IMG/VR virus record: IMGVR_UViG_2713897161_000004
Length of the DNA stretch: 8,661 nucleotides
Direction: 5' to 3' (one strand)
Source of the DNA: a virus
Lineage: Duplodnaviria > Heunggongvirae > Uroviricota > Caudoviricetes
In this document: piece by piece, positions 1 through 8,661 of the stretch
How positions within the stretch are numbered: the first letter of the stretch is position 1
Layout: each line of letters starts with the position of its first letter
Program-made: the position numbers and the translations under genes
Notes under the pieces: model-generated
Databases searched by the model: none
What the model was told of the DNA's origin: nothing
Seen by the model: only the letters and a program-made list of their open reading frames with translations

Positions 1-705
1 TTACATTTCAAAAACTCTGCTTACCAGGCGCATTTCGCCCAGGGGATCACCATAATAAAATGCTGAGGCCTGGCCTTTGCGTAGTGCACGCATCACCTCA
101 ATACCTTTGATGGTGGCGTAAGCCGTCTTCATGGATTTAAATCCCAGCGTGGCGCCGATTATCCGTTTCAGTTTGCCATGATCGCATTCAATCACGTTGT
201 TCCGGTACTTAATCTGTCGGTGTTCAACGTCAGACGGGCACCGGCCTTCGCGTTTGAGCAGAGCAAGCGCGCGACCATAGGCGGGCGCTTTATCCGTGTT
301 GATGAATCGCGGGATCTGCCACTTCTTCACGTTGTTGAGGATTTTACCCAGAAACCGGTATGCAGCTTTGCTGTTACGACGGGAGGAGAGATAAAAATCG
401 ACAGTGCGGCCCCGGCTGTCGACGGCCCGGTACAGATACGCCCAGCGGCCATTGACCTTCACGTAGGTTTCATCCATGTGCCACGGGCAAAGATCGGAAG
501 GGTTACGCCAGTACCAGCGCAGCCGTTTTTCCATTTCAGGCGCATAACGCTGAACCCAGCGGTAAATCGTGGAGTGATCGACATTCACTCCGCGTTCAGC
601 CAGCATCTCCTGCAGCTCACGGTAACTGATGCCGTATTTGCAGTACCAGCGTACGGCCCACAGAATGATGTCACGCTGAAAATGCCGGCCTTTGAATGGG
701 TTCAT
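1..705 (-). CDS. tnpA: IS26 transposase Tnp26 (DDE transposase, IS6 family), 234 aa, complete
   Basis: ORF track 1..723 minus; the protein from [66 protein letters not shown]... is the IS26 transposase. Real start is the ATG at 705 (MNPFKG); the MLMELH extension in the track is upstream read-through. Stop codon is at 1-3. Confidence 0.92.
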
Positions 706-754
706 GTGCAGCTCCATCAGCAAAAGGGGATGATAAGTTTATCACCACCGACTA

Positions 755-768
755 TTTGCAACAGTGCC
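755..768. repeat. IS26 14-bp terminal inverted repeat (plus strand TTTGCAACAGTGCC = reverse complement of GGCACTGTTGCAAA)
   Basis: Exact match to the known IS26 terminal repeat; marks the IS boundary at 768. Flanking 8 bp (769-776 CCATCCGT) would be the target-site duplication candidate. Confidence 0.85.
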
Positions 769-795
769 CCATCCGTTATCTGCGGAGGTGAGGCT

Positions 796-1011
796 ATGAA
801 ATCCATGGATAAGTTAACAACGGGCATCGCCTACAGCACCTCTGCAGGCAGTGCTGGCTACTGGTTTTTACAGTTGCTCGATAAAGTCACGCCCTCACAG
901 TGGGCGGCAATAGGTGTATTGGGTAGTCTGGTATTTGGCATGCTGACGTATCTGACAAATCTTTATTTCAAGATTAAAGAAGACAGGCGTAAGGCTGCGA
1001 GAGGAGAGTAA
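796..1011 (+). CDS. Phage holin, class II pinholin of the phage 21 S type (S21/EssD/EssQ-like), 71 aa, with dual-start motif
   Basis: Tail of ORF 178..1011: [71 protein letters not shown]. Two transmembrane segments: a Gly/Ala/Ser-rich SAR-like first segment and a hydrophobic second. Met1-Lys-Ser-Met4 dual start (antiholin/holin). RBS GGAGGTGAGG at 784-793. The part of the track ORF upstream of 796 is antisense to tnp26 and not coding. Confidence 0.85.
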
Positions 1012-1015
1012 TCCA

Positions 1016-1323
1016 ATGACTCAAGACTATGAACTGGTTGTGAAAGGAGTCCGTAATTTTGAGAATAAAGTTACGGTAACTGTAGCCTTACAGGACAAAG
1101 AACGCTTTGACGGTGAAATTTTTGGCCTGGATGTCGCCATGGACCGTGTTGAAGGAGCTGTGCTGGAGTTTTATGAGGCAGCAGCCAGAATGAGCGTCCG
1201 GCAAGTCTTCCTGGAAGTAGCAGAAAAATTGTCAGAAAAAGTTGAGTCTTATCTGCAGCATCAGTACTCCTTTAAGATTGAAAATCCTGCCAATAAGCAC
1301 GAGCGTCCTCATCATAAATATCT

Positions 1324-1327
<4 letters not shown>
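1016..1327 (+). CDS. ydfR: YdfR-like (DUF1327-type) conserved prophage protein of unknown function, 103 aa, sitting between holin and endolysin
   Basis: ORF 1016..1327, RBS GAGGAGAG at about 1000-1007, no predicted transmembrane segment, acidic. Stop TGA (1325-1327) overlaps the endolysin ATG (1324-1326) as ATGA. Length and position match my recollection of Qin-prophage ydfR; sequence identity not verified. Confidence 0.6.
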
Positions 1328-2350
<1,023 letters not shown>

Positions 2351-2533
2351 ATTAATATTAAATCGGATTATTTTTAGCGCTGAATGTGAAATTTAAATAA
2401 AAAGGACTCTTCCATGAGTCAAAATCCTTGAAATCTTAAGGGTAAGATAAAAGGTCATTAGACAGAATGACACGTTTTATTAATAAATAAAGCTATTGTT
2501 TCATTCGTGTGTTTTTCTTTACAAAAGTAATCC

Positions 2534-3197: not shown

Positions 3198-3428
3198 ATG
3201 AAAAAAATAATAGTTTTTTTTAACTCTGAACCAGCAATGGTAGTGCCAGTGATGACCGGAGTTAACACCATCATGCGTGAATATCCAAATGGCGAAACAA
3301 CACACCTCACTGTAATGGCTGCAGGGTTTCCATCTCTGACCGGAGATCATAAAGTCATTTATGTAGCAGCGGATCGACATGTAACTTCAGAAGAAATTCT
3401 GGAAGCAGCAATGAGACTCTTGAATTGA
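3198..3428 (+). CDS. Small hypothetical protein (76 aa from ATG 3198; 51 aa if started at internal ATG 3273), in the position of a Qin-type cold-shock-associated small gene (ynfN-like)
   Basis: ORF 3159..3428 (the track uses a GTG start): MKKIIVFFNSEPAMVVPVMTGVNTIMREYPNGETTHLTVMAAGFPSLTGDHKVIYVAADRHVTSEEILEAAMRLLN. No family recognised from sequence; weak RBS for either start. Called on position and ORF integrity only. Confidence 0.45.
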   Translation: MKKIIVFFNSEPAMVVPVMTGVNTIMREYPNGETTHLTVMAAGFPSLTGDHKVIYVAADRHVTSEEILEAAMRLLN

Positions 3429-3600
3429 TTTGATTCTAATGCATTGATAATAAATGATAATCATCTTTATCTGTTTGTGTGAAATTTAGACCGTCGTATG
3501 TTGATTATTGCGATGTTTCATCTTATCTTTTATACGTTTGCTCCATATAATTGACACTACTGTGTACCAGGACAGTCATAACAGACTAAAAGAGGAAATG

Positions 3601-3774
3601 ATGAACATTGAAGAGTTAAAAACAAAAACAGAAGCAGATATTTCTGAATATATAACAAAAAAAATCATTGAGCTTAAGAAAAAGACCGGGAAAGAAGTTA
3701 CCAGTATCCAGTTTACTGCACGGGAAAAAATGACTGGTCTTGAAAGCTATGATATCAAGATTGATTTAATCTAG
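3601..3774 (+). CDS. gnsB: GnsA/GnsB family protein (GnsB-like), 57 aa
   Basis: Tail of ORF 3508..3774 from the ATG at 3601: MNIEELKTKTEADISEYITKKIIELKKKTGKEVTSIQFTAREKMTGLESYDIKIDLI, which matches the Gns family pattern (MNIEELK...GKEV...FTAREKMTGLESYD.KI). SD GAGG at 3592-3595. Confidence 0.75.
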   Translation: MNIEELKTKTEADISEYITKKIIELKKKTGKEVTSIQFTAREKMTGLESYDIKIDLI

Positions 3775-3836
3775 CATGTTTATAGTATTAGCATCAATTT
3801 CTCATCAGATGCTATTCAACAATACAAATTACCCAT

Positions 3837-3863
3837 AAACCTCGTTTTTACGGGGTTTTGTTA
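3837..3863 (+). terminator. Weak terminator-like hairpin downstream of the gnsB-like gene (AAACCTCG / CGGGGTTT stem, then TTTTGTT)
   Basis: AAACCTCG-TTTTTA-CGGGGTTTTGTT; the stem includes a G-U pair and partly uses the T-tract. Confidence 0.3.
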
Positions 3864-4069
3864 TATTTAAACATTACCGAATAGATATAAATCTCGATTG
3901 TCGATGGTATTGGTTGTGTGACAATACCTAGTCTTTCCGGTATGCCTGAAGAGAATACAAACGACAGATTATGTAAGGGAAACGCGCTGAAACTTTCACT
4001 CTTTCATGCTGAGTGATTTGACGTTATATTTTTAGCCGCAAGTGAAGAGCAAACGAATGGAGCGACAAA

Positions 4070-4828: not shown

Positions 4829-5323
4829 ATGGATCGAGAGTTAAAAAATCTGACGCTGAATATCAGTCAACTGGCGGCATTGTCAGGTGTACATCGCCAG
4901 ACTGCTGCGGCAAGGCTGCAAAATCTACCCGTTGCAGGGGGGCATGAAAGCAACCTCAAGCTTTATCGGGTGGTTGATATTGTGTCGGCATTTCTGGCAT
5001 TACCACCGCCGGTTGCAGAAGGCGAAATGGACGCGCATGAGCGCAAAGCCTGGTATCAGTCTGAACGTGAGCGTCTTAAGTTCGAACAGGAAACGGCACA
5101 ACTCATTCCGGCCAGTGATGTCAGACGGGAGTTTGCCATCTGGGCAAAAGCGGTCGTGCAGGTGCTGGAGACATTACCGGATATTCTTGAACGTGACTGC
5201 GGTCTGCAGCCTGACGCTGTGAGCCGTGTTCAGTCCATTATTGATGATCTGCGCGATCAGATAGCCCTGCGGGTGACTGAAGCAGGTGCGGATGATGAGG
5301 AGGAATTACAGCAGGAGGAGTAA
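4829..5323 (+). CDS. Phage terminase small subunit (lambda Nu1-like DNA packaging protein), 164 aa
   Basis: ORF 4829..5323: N-terminal HTH-like segment (LTLNISQLAALSGVHRQTAAARLQNLP) comparable to the Nu1 N-terminus, acidic C-terminal tail, SD GGAG at 4819-4822. Stop TAA overlaps the large-subunit ATG as TAATG (5321-5325). Confidence 0.75.
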   Translation: MDRELKNLTLNISQLAALSGVHRQTAAARLQNLPVAGGHESNLKLYRVVDIVSAFLALPPPVAEGEMDAHERKAWYQSERERLKFEQETAQLIPASDVRREFAIWAKAVVQVLETLPDILERDCGLQPDAVSRVQSIIDDLRDQIALRVTEAGADDEEELQQEE

Positions 5324-6807
5324 TGCTGAATCAGGAAACCGCAAAGGCAGCACGAACCGATTCAGGTTATATCCTTCGCGCACCGAGACGAATGCGGGTT
5401 GCTGATGCCGTTGCTCAGTATATGCGGGTGCCCATGGGGGCAGGGAACTCAGTCCCGTGGGATCCGCTGGTGGCACCGTATGTTATTGAGCCTATGAACT
5501 GCCTGGCCTCGCGTGAATACGACGCAGTGATATTTGTTGGCCCGGCACGAACCGGCAAGACTATCGGCCTGATTGACGGCTGGGTGATTTACAACGTGAT
5601 TTGCGATCCTGCTGATATGCTGATCATTCAGATGACGGAGGAAAAAGCCCGCGAACACTCCAAAAAACGACTCGCCAGAACGTTTCGCGTCAGCCCGGAA
5701 GTGGTCAGTCGCCTGAGTCCGAACAAAAATGACAACAACGTTTATGACAGAACATTCCTTGCTGGCAACTACCTGAAAATCGGCTGGCCGTCAGTCAATA
5801 TCATGTCTTCATCAGATTATAAATGCGTGGCGCTGACGGATTATGACCGTTTTCCGGAAGATATTGATGGTGAGGGGGATGCCTTCTCTCTTGCCTCAAA
5901 ACGTACCACCACATTTATGTCCAGTGGTATGACGCTGGTGGAGAGTTCCCCCGGCAGGGATGTGAAGGATGTGAAATGGCGACGGACTTCACCGCATGAG
6001 GCTCCACCAACCACGGGGATCCTGTCGCTCTATAACCGTGGCGATCGCCGTCGCTGGTACTGGCCCTGTCCACACTGTGGTGAGTATTTTCAGCCCTGCG
6101 GCGATGTGGTTGCTGGTTTCCGTGATATTGCCGATCCTGTGCTGGCAAGTGAGGCGGCTTATATTCAGTGTCCTTCCTGTTCAGGACGGATTTTGCCTGA
6201 ACAAAAACGCGAGCTGAACGGACGTGGGGTCTGGTTACGGGATGGTGAATCCATCAATGCAGATGGCAGTCGTTATGGTGATCCCCGGCGTTCACGTATT
6301 GCGTCATTCTGGATGGAGGGTCCGGCAGCTGCTTATCAGACACTCTCGCAACTCGTTTACAAGCTGCTTACTGCAGAACAGGAATACGAGACAACCGGAA
6401 GTGAAGAGACACTCAAGACGGTTATCAATACCGACTGGGGATTACCTTATCTTCCCCGCGCCAGCATGGAGCAACGAAAAAGTGAATTGCTTGAGCAGCG
6501 GGCAGAGCCAGTTCCTTCCCGCAGTGTGCCGGATGGCGTTAATTTCCTTGTGGCGACAGTGGATGTGCAGGCGGGACGTCATCGCCGTTTTGTGGTTCAG
6601 GTAACGGGCTATGGCAGCCGTGGCGAACGCTGGATTATTGATCGTTACAACATCACGCAGTCATTGCGCGGTGACAGCGACGGGGAGAGCCAGCGAATTG
6701 ATCCGGCCAGCTACCGGAGTCGGAAGTTGCCGGACCCTGCAGATGAAGGCGCATTACAGAAATGGAGGTCTGTTCTACCGTTCTTCAAGAGATGGCTATG
6801 GTTTTGA
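5323..6807 (+). CDS. Phage terminase large subunit, lambda GpA family, C-terminally truncated (494 codons versus about 640 in lambda gpA)
   Basis: ORF 5323..6807: Walker A P-loop GPARTGKT, Cys cluster [10 protein letters not shown]...CPSCSG (cf. lambda ACPHCGEEQY), and [32 protein letters not shown] (cf. lambda IDSQLDRYEMRVWGWGPGEESWLIDRQII). The ORF ends about 60 codons after this motif with an unrelated tail (...[16 protein letters not shown]), and tail-fibre sequence follows. Confidence 0.85.
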
Positions 6808-7378
6808 GGAAGACTGGGCAGAAGTTTATACCTCGAAAAATCTTCCACCAGAAAGCTACCCAGTCGGCGCACCAATCCCGTGGCCATCAGATACCGTTCC
6901 GTCTGGTTATGCCCTGATGCAGGGGCAGACTTTTGACAAATCTGCCTACCCGAAACTTGCTGCCGCTTATCCGTCAGGCGTGATCCCTGATTTGCGTGGC
7001 TGGACGATTAAGGGCAAGCCCGCCAGTGGTCGAGCCATATTGTCTCAGGAACAGGACGGCATTAAATCGCACACCCACAGCGCCAGCGCATCCAGTACGG
7101 ATTTGGGTACGAAAACCACATCGTCGTTTGATTACGGCACTAAATCCACGAATAACACCGGGGCGCATACCCATAGTGTTAGCGGTACGGCTGCTTCAGC
7201 CGGTGCACATACCCATTCGATGACATTTGTTTCAGGTGGTTCCAGTGGTGCTCCGGGAAGTGGAGCATCTGATTATTCTAAATACAGTGTTAACACTTCT
7301 TCTGCAGGCGCTCATACGCACTCTGTATTCTTGCTACGGAACATTTCAGTGACTGGGGATATTATGAGGTCAACTTAA
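6743..7378 (+). pseudogene. Side tail fibre protein (lambda Stf-like) C-terminal fragment; supported homologous core about 6857-7326
   Basis: Frame of ORF 6611..7378: [121 protein letters not shown]..., cf. lambda Stf [96 protein letters not shown]...[11 protein letters not shown]. No N-terminal part; ends in out-of-frame ydfI-like sequence ([16 protein letters not shown]). Confidence 0.75.
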
Positions 7379-8661
7379 TCGGCGGCGAACAGCAAATTGC
7401 CGATTTACAACAGCAAGATAATCTTTATACCGTTGCGGAAATGTCGGCCGACGCGTGGACGGCTCGCGTCGTTGGCGTCGTTAAAAAAGCCTTGCACGTA
7501 CAAATAGATGGCTTAGAAACCGTGCTGGCTGCGATGTGTGAACCGCAAATTGCGATTGTCTCTCTGACAATCACCGAAAAAGGGTATTTCCACTCTCCGG
7601 CGACCGGACAGTTAATGCTCGATCACCCGATGGTCGCTGCCGACGTGCAAAATCCCCACCAGCCGAAAACAGCAACAGGGGTGATTGTTGAGGCGCTGGC
7701 TCGCCGTAAAGCGGCAGGACTTCCCGCATTTACCGTCATGTCATGTGACAACATGCCAGAAAACGGTCATGTTATGCGTGACGTTGTCACTTCCTACGCA
7801 CAAGCCGTTGATGTAAAACTGGCACAATGGATCGAAGATAACGTGACTTTCCCATCAACAATGGTGGACCGTATTGTGCCCGCAGTGACAGAGGATACGC
7901 TGGCGAAAATCGAACAACTTACCGGTGTGGGCGATCCTGCGGGCGTTGCCTGTGAACCTTTCCGCCAGTGGGTAATAGAAGATAACTTTGTTGCCGGACG
8001 TCCGGAATGGGAAAAAGCGGGAGCCGAACTGGTTAGCGATGTGCTGCCTTATGAAGAGATGAAGTTGCGCATGCTCAACGGCAGTCATTCATTCCTGGCG
8101 TATCTGGGGTATCTTGCAGGATATCAGCACATTAATGACTGTATGGAAGATGAACAATATCGTTATGCGGCGTATGGCTTGATGTTGCAGGAACAAGCGC
8201 CGACGTTGAAAGTGCAGGGCGTTGATTTGCAAGATTACGCTAACCGATTAATTGCACGCTATAGCAACCCGGCGTTACGTCATCGAACCTGGCAGATTGC
8301 GATGGATGGTAGCCAGAAATTGCCACAGCGGATGTTGGATTCTGTTCGCTGGCATCTGGCGCATGACAGCAAGTTCGATCTGCTGGCGCTGGGCGTCGCG
8401 GGTTGGATGCGTTATGTCGGTGGTGTTGATGAACAGGGAAATCCGATAGAAATCAGTGACCCACTGTTACCTGTTATTCAGAAGGCTGTACAAAGTAGTG
8501 ACGAAGGGAAAGCGCGCGTCCAGTCATTGCTGGCGATTAAGGCGATCTTTGGTGATGATTTGCCAGACAATAGTTTGTTTACTGCAAGAGTGACGGAAAC
8601 GTACTTGTCTTTATTAGCGCATGGCGCGAAAGCGACCGTGGCAAAATATTCCGTGAAGTAA
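7327..8661 (+). pseudogene. ydfI: Mannitol dehydrogenase family oxidoreductase (YdfI/UxuB-like), 5'-truncated: homology begins in-frame at about 7327, first available start is ATG 7441 (406-aa ORF), C-terminus complete
   Basis: ORF 7441..8661; in-frame upstream codons 7327-7440 read [38 protein letters not shown] with no start codon, and a TAA at 7291-7293 closes the frame. This matches the family region after the N-terminal NAD-binding motif (cf. UxuB ...DWGICEVNL...LYTVAE), so the Rossmann GxGxFxRAH segment is absent. Confidence 0.75.

Follow-up and report, generated by a model that had tools for sequence, protein, structure and literature searches.

We have identified a copy of IS26 that ends 27 nt upstream of the start codon of an S21-type holin gene in a cryptic prophage of Escherichia coli. 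This element lies within a 190-bp spacer of a prophage that had already decayed; it most likely supplies the lysis genes with no usable promoter and has had next to no consequence. The DNA analysed, referred to here as the window, is a single stretch of 8,661 nucleotides (IMG/VR record IMGVR_UViG_2713897161_000004).

IS26 and its junction with prophage DNA

The features of IS26 and of the holin leader are listed below by window position, strand and basis of assignment.

1..768, minus strand: IS26, element positions 53-820, by identity to the IS26 copy of pT212; the remaining 52 nt, at the far end, are beyond the window
1..705, minus strand: tnp26 transposase gene, 234 aa (NF033587), transcribed away from the holin gene
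755..768, no strand: 14-bp terminal inverted repeat of IS26, TTTGCAACAGTGCC, read directly; the same 14-mer closes the IS26 copy of pT212
756..761, plus strand: outward-facing TTGCAA, read directly; the -35 of known IS26 hybrid promoters, with no partner -10 here
767..790, plus strand: putative hairpin pairing the Shine-Dalgarno sequence, from RNA folding of the leader with and without IS26
769..776, no strand: CCATCCGT, the first 8 nt of the flank and the target; the expected 8-bp target duplication if the insertion was simple
784..788, plus strand: Shine-Dalgarno sequence GGAGG of the holin gene, read directly

Positions 1-768 are identical (768/768) to an annotated 820-bp IS26 copy in the Proteus plasmid pT212, in a match that spans element positions 53-820. 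At least 5000 plasmid records, annotated as 'IS6-like element IS26 family transposase', are likewise 100% identical to this stretch, and the match is far beyond chance. The pT212 copy is bounded by GGCACTGTTGCAAA and TTTGCAACAGTGCC, the former of which is present at 755-768 of the window as its reverse complement. The window starts at the transposase stop codon, with 52 nt of the element before it, and the holin gene faces the end next to the transposase promoter. The 234-aa product read from 705 to 1 on the minus strand matches the IS6 family transposase profile NF033587 (E = 2.3e-82, 275.6 bits; profile cut-off 125 bits), and its gene is intact, in keeping with the single DDE transposase of ~234 aa that marks the IS6/IS26 family. 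Over the 768 of 820 bp that the window covers, nothing is missing from the copy. On the plus strand, a stop-free frame of 277 aa (178-1011) crosses tnp26 in antisense and extends into the reading frame of the holin gene; this is a mechanical ORF, predicted by reading frame alone.

Homology to uninterrupted E. coli chromosomes starts exactly at position 769, the base right after the IS26 end. From there to position 8661, the window is identical at 7893 of 7893 positions to ET881, SW071610 and two public contigs, so the pre-insertion sequence is known exactly and reads ...AACCGTGTACA|CCATCCGTTATCTGCGGAGGTGAGGCTATG across the site. The preliminary description had proposed such a comparison with an uninterrupted homologous prophage, and in these relatives CCATCCGT occurs once, at positions 9001-9008 of the ET881 locus (L001, whose numbering is used below for native sequence). 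Direct reading also bears out its placement of the IS26 repeat end at 768 and of the holin ATG at 796 behind an intact ribosome-binding site, with 27 nt (769-795) between element and start codon.

Exact searches with the right junction and with the predicted left junction (GTGTACACCATCCGT|GGCACTGTTGCAAA) returned zero matches in GTDB representative genomes, JGI metagenomes and IMG/VR. A megablast search with window positions 690-900 found no genome spanning the junction among 5426 complete E. coli genomes, and exact-protein look-ups with ydfR, the 66-aa rrrQ fragment and the holin retrieved uninterrupted loci only.

The host prophage and the state of its lysis cassette

The locus is a ~12-kb, heavily deleted Qin-type lambdoid cryptic prophage that lies between rspB and a 5'-truncated ydfI in the E. 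coli chromosome. The left part of its native order consists of rspB, a truncated integrase gene, a truncated DUF968 gene, Q (125 aa, PF06530), a blc-like lipocalin gene on the opposite strand, a ybgA-like gene and an AraC-family gene. The right part continues with essD, ydfR, rrrQ, rzpQ/rzoQ, cspI and neighbouring small genes, followed by a small terminase gene, a truncated large terminase gene, a tail-fibre fragment and the 5'-truncated ydfI. The region between int and DUF968, with the immunity, replication and early-transcription genes, is absent, and because of this loss the route that normally supplies Q is gone.

Deletion joints are visible at the right end of the prophage at window positions ~6718 and ~7325. 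Large terminase homology ends at 6718, which makes the 494-aa ORF at 5323-6807 a truncated fusion; a tail-fibre fragment with 96% identity to K-12 Qin occupies 6857-7188, and ydfI resumes, 5'-truncated, from 7326. A search of window positions 1-2500 against Rfam found nothing. Further downstream, the cspA thermoregulator family (RF01766) is matched at 2567-2972 on the plus strand (111 bits, E = 2e-28), in a match that takes in the cspI leader as well as its coding sequence (2711-2926).

The lysis cassette begins directly after the holin leader and is organised as follows.

796..1011, plus strand: essD/essQ-type class II (S21-like) holin gene, 71 aa (PF04971, Phage_holin_2_1), by annotation
1016..1327, plus strand: ydfR (DUF1327), by annotation and profile
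1324..1856, plus strand: rrrQ lysozyme gene, frameshifted, with a signal-anchor-like N-terminus, by comparison with an intact allele
1853..2350, plus strand: rzpQ (DUF2514, i-spanin), by annotation and reading frame
~2046-2300, plus strand: rzoQ, an embedded o-spanin reading frame, its start placed by the lipobox LTSC in the +1 frame

The holin ATG occupies 796-798, and the protein, which begins MKSMDK, has two hydrophobic segments that can be read directly from its sequence. Both starts of the dual-start arrangement, Met1 (796) and Met4 (805), are intact, and together with the family and the length of ~71 aa this identifies an S21-type pinholin; the dual start of S21-type holins has been described (PMC9636201).

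The endolysin gene is defective, which the preliminary description had missed. Compared with the intact 13C1079T allele, rrrQ has lost one nucleotide from a run of A residues (A5 to A4, at 1503-1506). The gene is also annotated as 'frameshifted' in ET881, and the resulting 66-aa rrrQ fragment was found in 222 blocks of a public collection, in loci without IS26. The frameshift is thus common to uninterrupted relatives and therefore predates the IS26 insertion. The rrrQ N-terminus, MNTKIRYGLSAAVLALIGAGASAP, is Gly/Ala-rich and is followed by the PF00959 domain, which points to a putative signal-anchor-release sequence, in a gene that is frameshifted here. Judged from these comparisons, the lysis cassette was a relic before IS26 arrived, with its endolysin frameshifted and the early region of the prophage lost. 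Elsewhere in the species, ydfR is cut to 72 aa by a ~450-bp insertion in which a 98-aa ORF runs on the opposite strand (L019 and L028, 3221-3888).

Location of the native late-regulatory region

The preliminary description held that IS26 had replaced the late-regulatory region of the phage. This is not what the uninterrupted loci contain at that position. Directly left of the break lies the 190-bp spacer with a terminator-like hairpin, preceded by the AraC-family cargo gene, and Q is situated 3.1 kb upstream of the holin gene, separated from it by three cargo genes (~3 kb). Phage 1H12 has the same arrangement: the 155 bp downstream of its Q are 95% identical, beyond which the holin gene is again preceded by this blc/ybgA/AraC-like cargo. 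In neither ET881 nor 1H12, then, do Q and a late promoter adjoin the holin gene, and since 3.1 kb separate the two in ET881-type loci and in 1H12, the late-regulatory region never did. IS26 directly displaces the spacer rather than the late-regulatory region.

Q and the 155-bp stretch downstream of it are 93-97% conserved in the lambdoid phage genomes of a phage collection. Directly after Q stands a strong hairpin resembling an intrinsic terminator (L001 5984-6007, nine pairs and a T run), which is tR'-like. On our reading, TTGCTG-17-TAACAT (L001 5899-5927) is a candidate for the late promoter pR' after Q; it was not among the sites reported by the promoter scan, and 1H12 has a different -10. 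A second terminator-like hairpin lies in the 190-bp holin leader (L001 8906-8927) and is also present in 1H12.

A native promoter closer to the holin gene was considered as well and rejected. Immediately left of the insertion site, the ET881 spacer contains a sigma-E-like motif, GTAACTT-15-CCAAA (L001 8965-8991), which probably arose by chance. The scan found no counterpart in 1H12, and none was found in K-12 DLP12, where the spacer is not homologous to the ET881-type spacer. In MS6198, the spacing differs and CCGAA stands for CCAAA, as judged by eye from the alignment rather than by scanning. For the DLP12 cassette itself, both expression and control by Q, RpoE and Hha have been reported (PMC7918800). 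In the window, the 27 nt left between IS26 and the holin ATG are too short to hold a native promoter, and a native late promoter downstream of 768, which would have told against the preliminary description, was not detected in the scan of positions 1-2800.

Promoter potential of the IS26 end

The TTGCAA at 756-761 is simply part of the IS26 repeat, and it is documented as the outward -35 of IS26 hybrid promoters (PMC6807381, PMC7986276, PMC11156391). In a hybrid promoter validated by 5' RACE, it is followed after 17 nt by CATAAT (PMC11156391). The window resembles the known cases (IS26/In37 of aac(6')-Ib-cr/blaOXA-1; aphA7, blaSHV-2a and blaKPC) in having the same TTGCAA within the 14-bp repeat and in abutting a gene whose ribosome-binding site is intact. 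It departs from them in the -10: validated IS26 hybrid promoters have CATAAT (5/6) exactly 17 nt downstream, whereas the hexamers found here 16, 17 and 18 nt after TTGCAA are ATCTGC, TCTGCG and CTGCGG, which agree with TATAAT at 0, 2 and 0 of 6 positions. A consensus scan of positions 1-2800 on both strands reported no sigma-70-like site. Since nothing like a -10 follows the IS26 TTGCAA at 16-18 nt, we predict from the consensus that no credible hybrid promoter was formed at the junction, in agreement with the preliminary description, which had also seen no convincing -10.

That description left the choice between a weak hybrid promoter and none. Of these two, we retain the second. The best hexamer, TATCTG (777-782), keeps the first three -10 positions and follows a proven outward -35 (PMC6807381, PMC7986276, PMC11156391), and a promoter formed by this pair would give low constitutive transcription of the holin gene and the genes downstream. 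Such a promoter is nonetheless very unlikely: the 15-nt spacer falls short of the 16-18 nt range, the hexamer matches at three of six positions and is without the final T, there is no TG extension, a start from TATCTG would lie ~5-8 nt before the Shine-Dalgarno sequence, and the consensus scan reports no promoter there. Weak or non-sigma-70 initiation may occur, as may read-through from within or beyond IS26. The consensus scan found no terminator-like site on the plus strand of the IS26 part of the window.

The holin leader and insertions near S21-type holins

The native leader can fold into a hairpin, CACCAUCCGU-UAUCU-GCGGAGGUG (L001 8999-9022), in which nine pairs form and the whole GGAGG is paired. 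IS26 enters two bases into the 5' arm, changing CA|CC to CC|CC at the cost of one A-U pair. The folding energy of neither the native nor the interrupted leader was better than that of shuffled controls, and the two folds differ by one base pair. The hairpin over the ribosome-binding site rests on conservation and on the S21 literature, not on statistics: Barenboim and colleagues reportedly described in 1999 a stem-loop over the ribosome-binding site of the phage 21 holin gene, to which the 767..790 hairpin presumably corresponds. By eye, the alignment suggests that K-12 DLP12 could form a hairpin too, from other stem bases.

The insertion site coincides with a boundary between mosaic modules, because homology between lambdoid prophage types begins there: in the alignment, upstream similarity among ET881, a TolA-cargo Qin variant and K-12 DLP12 starts at about 769.

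The same site has been used by a different element. In MS6198, IS1 (positions 3247-4023 of the locus) is inserted between ...GTGTACACCATCCGTT and CCATCCGTTATTTGCGG, 27 nt before the holin ATG, with a 9-bp duplication, CCATCCGTT, and both flanks intact, which identifies a simple insertion. Its flank is CCATCCGT(T), the site identical to that of IS26 in the window, and its transposase gene points away from the holin gene. The junction recurs in five more complete genomes. Further IS1 copies are located 47, 81, 82, 128, 252 and 275 nt before the holin ATG in seven complete E. coli genomes. The survey covered IS1 only, in one orientation only (transposase gene pointing away), and within this scope 24 complete genomes together have at least seven distinct IS1 positions in the 275 nt before S21-type holins. 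K-12 DLP12 carries IS5 between quuD and essD. IS insertions in the interval upstream of the holin gene are thus commonplace, by a count that covers this interval only.

Discussion

The element described here is a known one, its site is new yet unremarkable, and the event was probably an ordinary, neutral insertion. If it was a simple insertion, the other IS26 end would read ...AACCGTGTACACCATCCGT|GGCACTGTTGCAAA, with the AraC-like gene upstream and an 8-bp duplication. The insertion would then only move the cassette at least 820 bp further from the spacer terminator, the ~3 kb of cargo, Q and the candidate late promoter. RNA polymerase modified by Q is terminator-resistant, and it would for this reason be expected to traverse the 820 bp of IS26.

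IS26 can end up as a lone copy with an 8-bp duplication, as the end of an IS26-bounded island, or beside an intramolecular deletion or inversion (PMC7986276). The copy in the window could accordingly stand where IS26 has deleted or inverted neighbouring DNA, or could close the right side of a (pseudo-compound) resistance island bounded by IS26, and Q, the late promoter and the cargo would then no longer be directly upstream. Transposition of IS26 is replicative; within one molecule it removes or inverts the neighbouring DNA and generates no target duplication, and IS26 copies are typically arrayed around resistance genes (PMC7986276). Another genome (L005) shows IS1/Tn3 rearrangements in this same prophage region. 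Nothing specific speaks against this reading, although the IS1 of MS6198, a simple insertion at the same site, shows that the site tolerates one. We consider a deletion, inversion or island a real possibility that falls just short of an even chance; it would leave the cassette orphaned. Either way, the regulatory effect of the insertion would likely be without a phenotype, and the consequence is probably nil because the endolysin was already frameshifted and the early region already lost.

An assembly artefact at the junction is highly improbable. IS26 is multicopy, short-read assemblies commonly break or misjoin at such elements, and the junction is unique relative to the 5426 complete E. coli genomes. 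The join, however, falls at the exact terminal nucleotide of IS26 and native homology resumes at the very next base, which is a signature of transposition and makes a chimera unlikely. An error in repeat resolution could mislink the IS26 copy or its left flank, yet it would not create the IS26/holin junction.

It could also be asked whether such insertions are selected, with the host benefiting when an S21-type holin is uncoupled from late transcription. Two different elements, IS26 here and IS1 in MS6198, occupy the identical site, at least seven IS1 positions fall within 275 nt upstream, and IS5 lies between quuD and essD in DLP12. These counts, however, cover the interval before the holin gene only. 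IS1 favours AT-rich DNA, and the spacer upstream of the holin gene is AT-rich; the cassette in the lineage of the window was already dead, leaving little to select; and polymerase modified by Q should read through an IS. We regard selection as unlikely, and we are similarly doubtful that the leader of S21-type holins, notably the 5' foot of the hairpin at the ribosome-binding site, is a preferred or selected landing site and a recurrent route by which prophage lysis genes are disarmed in E. coli.

MS6198 and the five genomes that share its junction have the identical site interrupted, but by IS1 and in a DLP12-type cassette (essD-rrrD). K-12 DLP12 resembles the window in having an IS between the Q antiterminator gene and the S21-type lysis cassette of a cryptic lambdoid prophage; its IS5, however, interrupts the cargo gene nmpC ~1.6 kb from essD, whereas IS26 of the window lies in the holin leader. 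The S21 cassette of phage 21 shares the 71-aa class II holin with Met1-Lys-Ser-Met4, the lysozyme with a Gly/Ala-rich anchor, and the spanins, while the window differs in the extra ydfR between holin and endolysin genes, in the frameshifted endolysin and in being a prophage remnant. The functional lambdoid phage 1H12 (Jouyvirus, NC_049947.1) has the same Q, cargo and holin leader, including the sequence of the insertion site; it is uninterrupted and complete and so shows the native arrangement.

The insertion is of little significance in itself, being one more chromosomal IS26 copy in a prophage that was already without early genes and endolysin. Since none of 5426 complete E. coli genomes has the junction, it is of some use as a strain marker, and it points to an IS26-bearing plasmid or resistance island having interacted with the chromosome. 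If the recurrence of IS elements upstream of the holin gene should be non-random, it would bear on the domestication of prophage lysis modules by the host.
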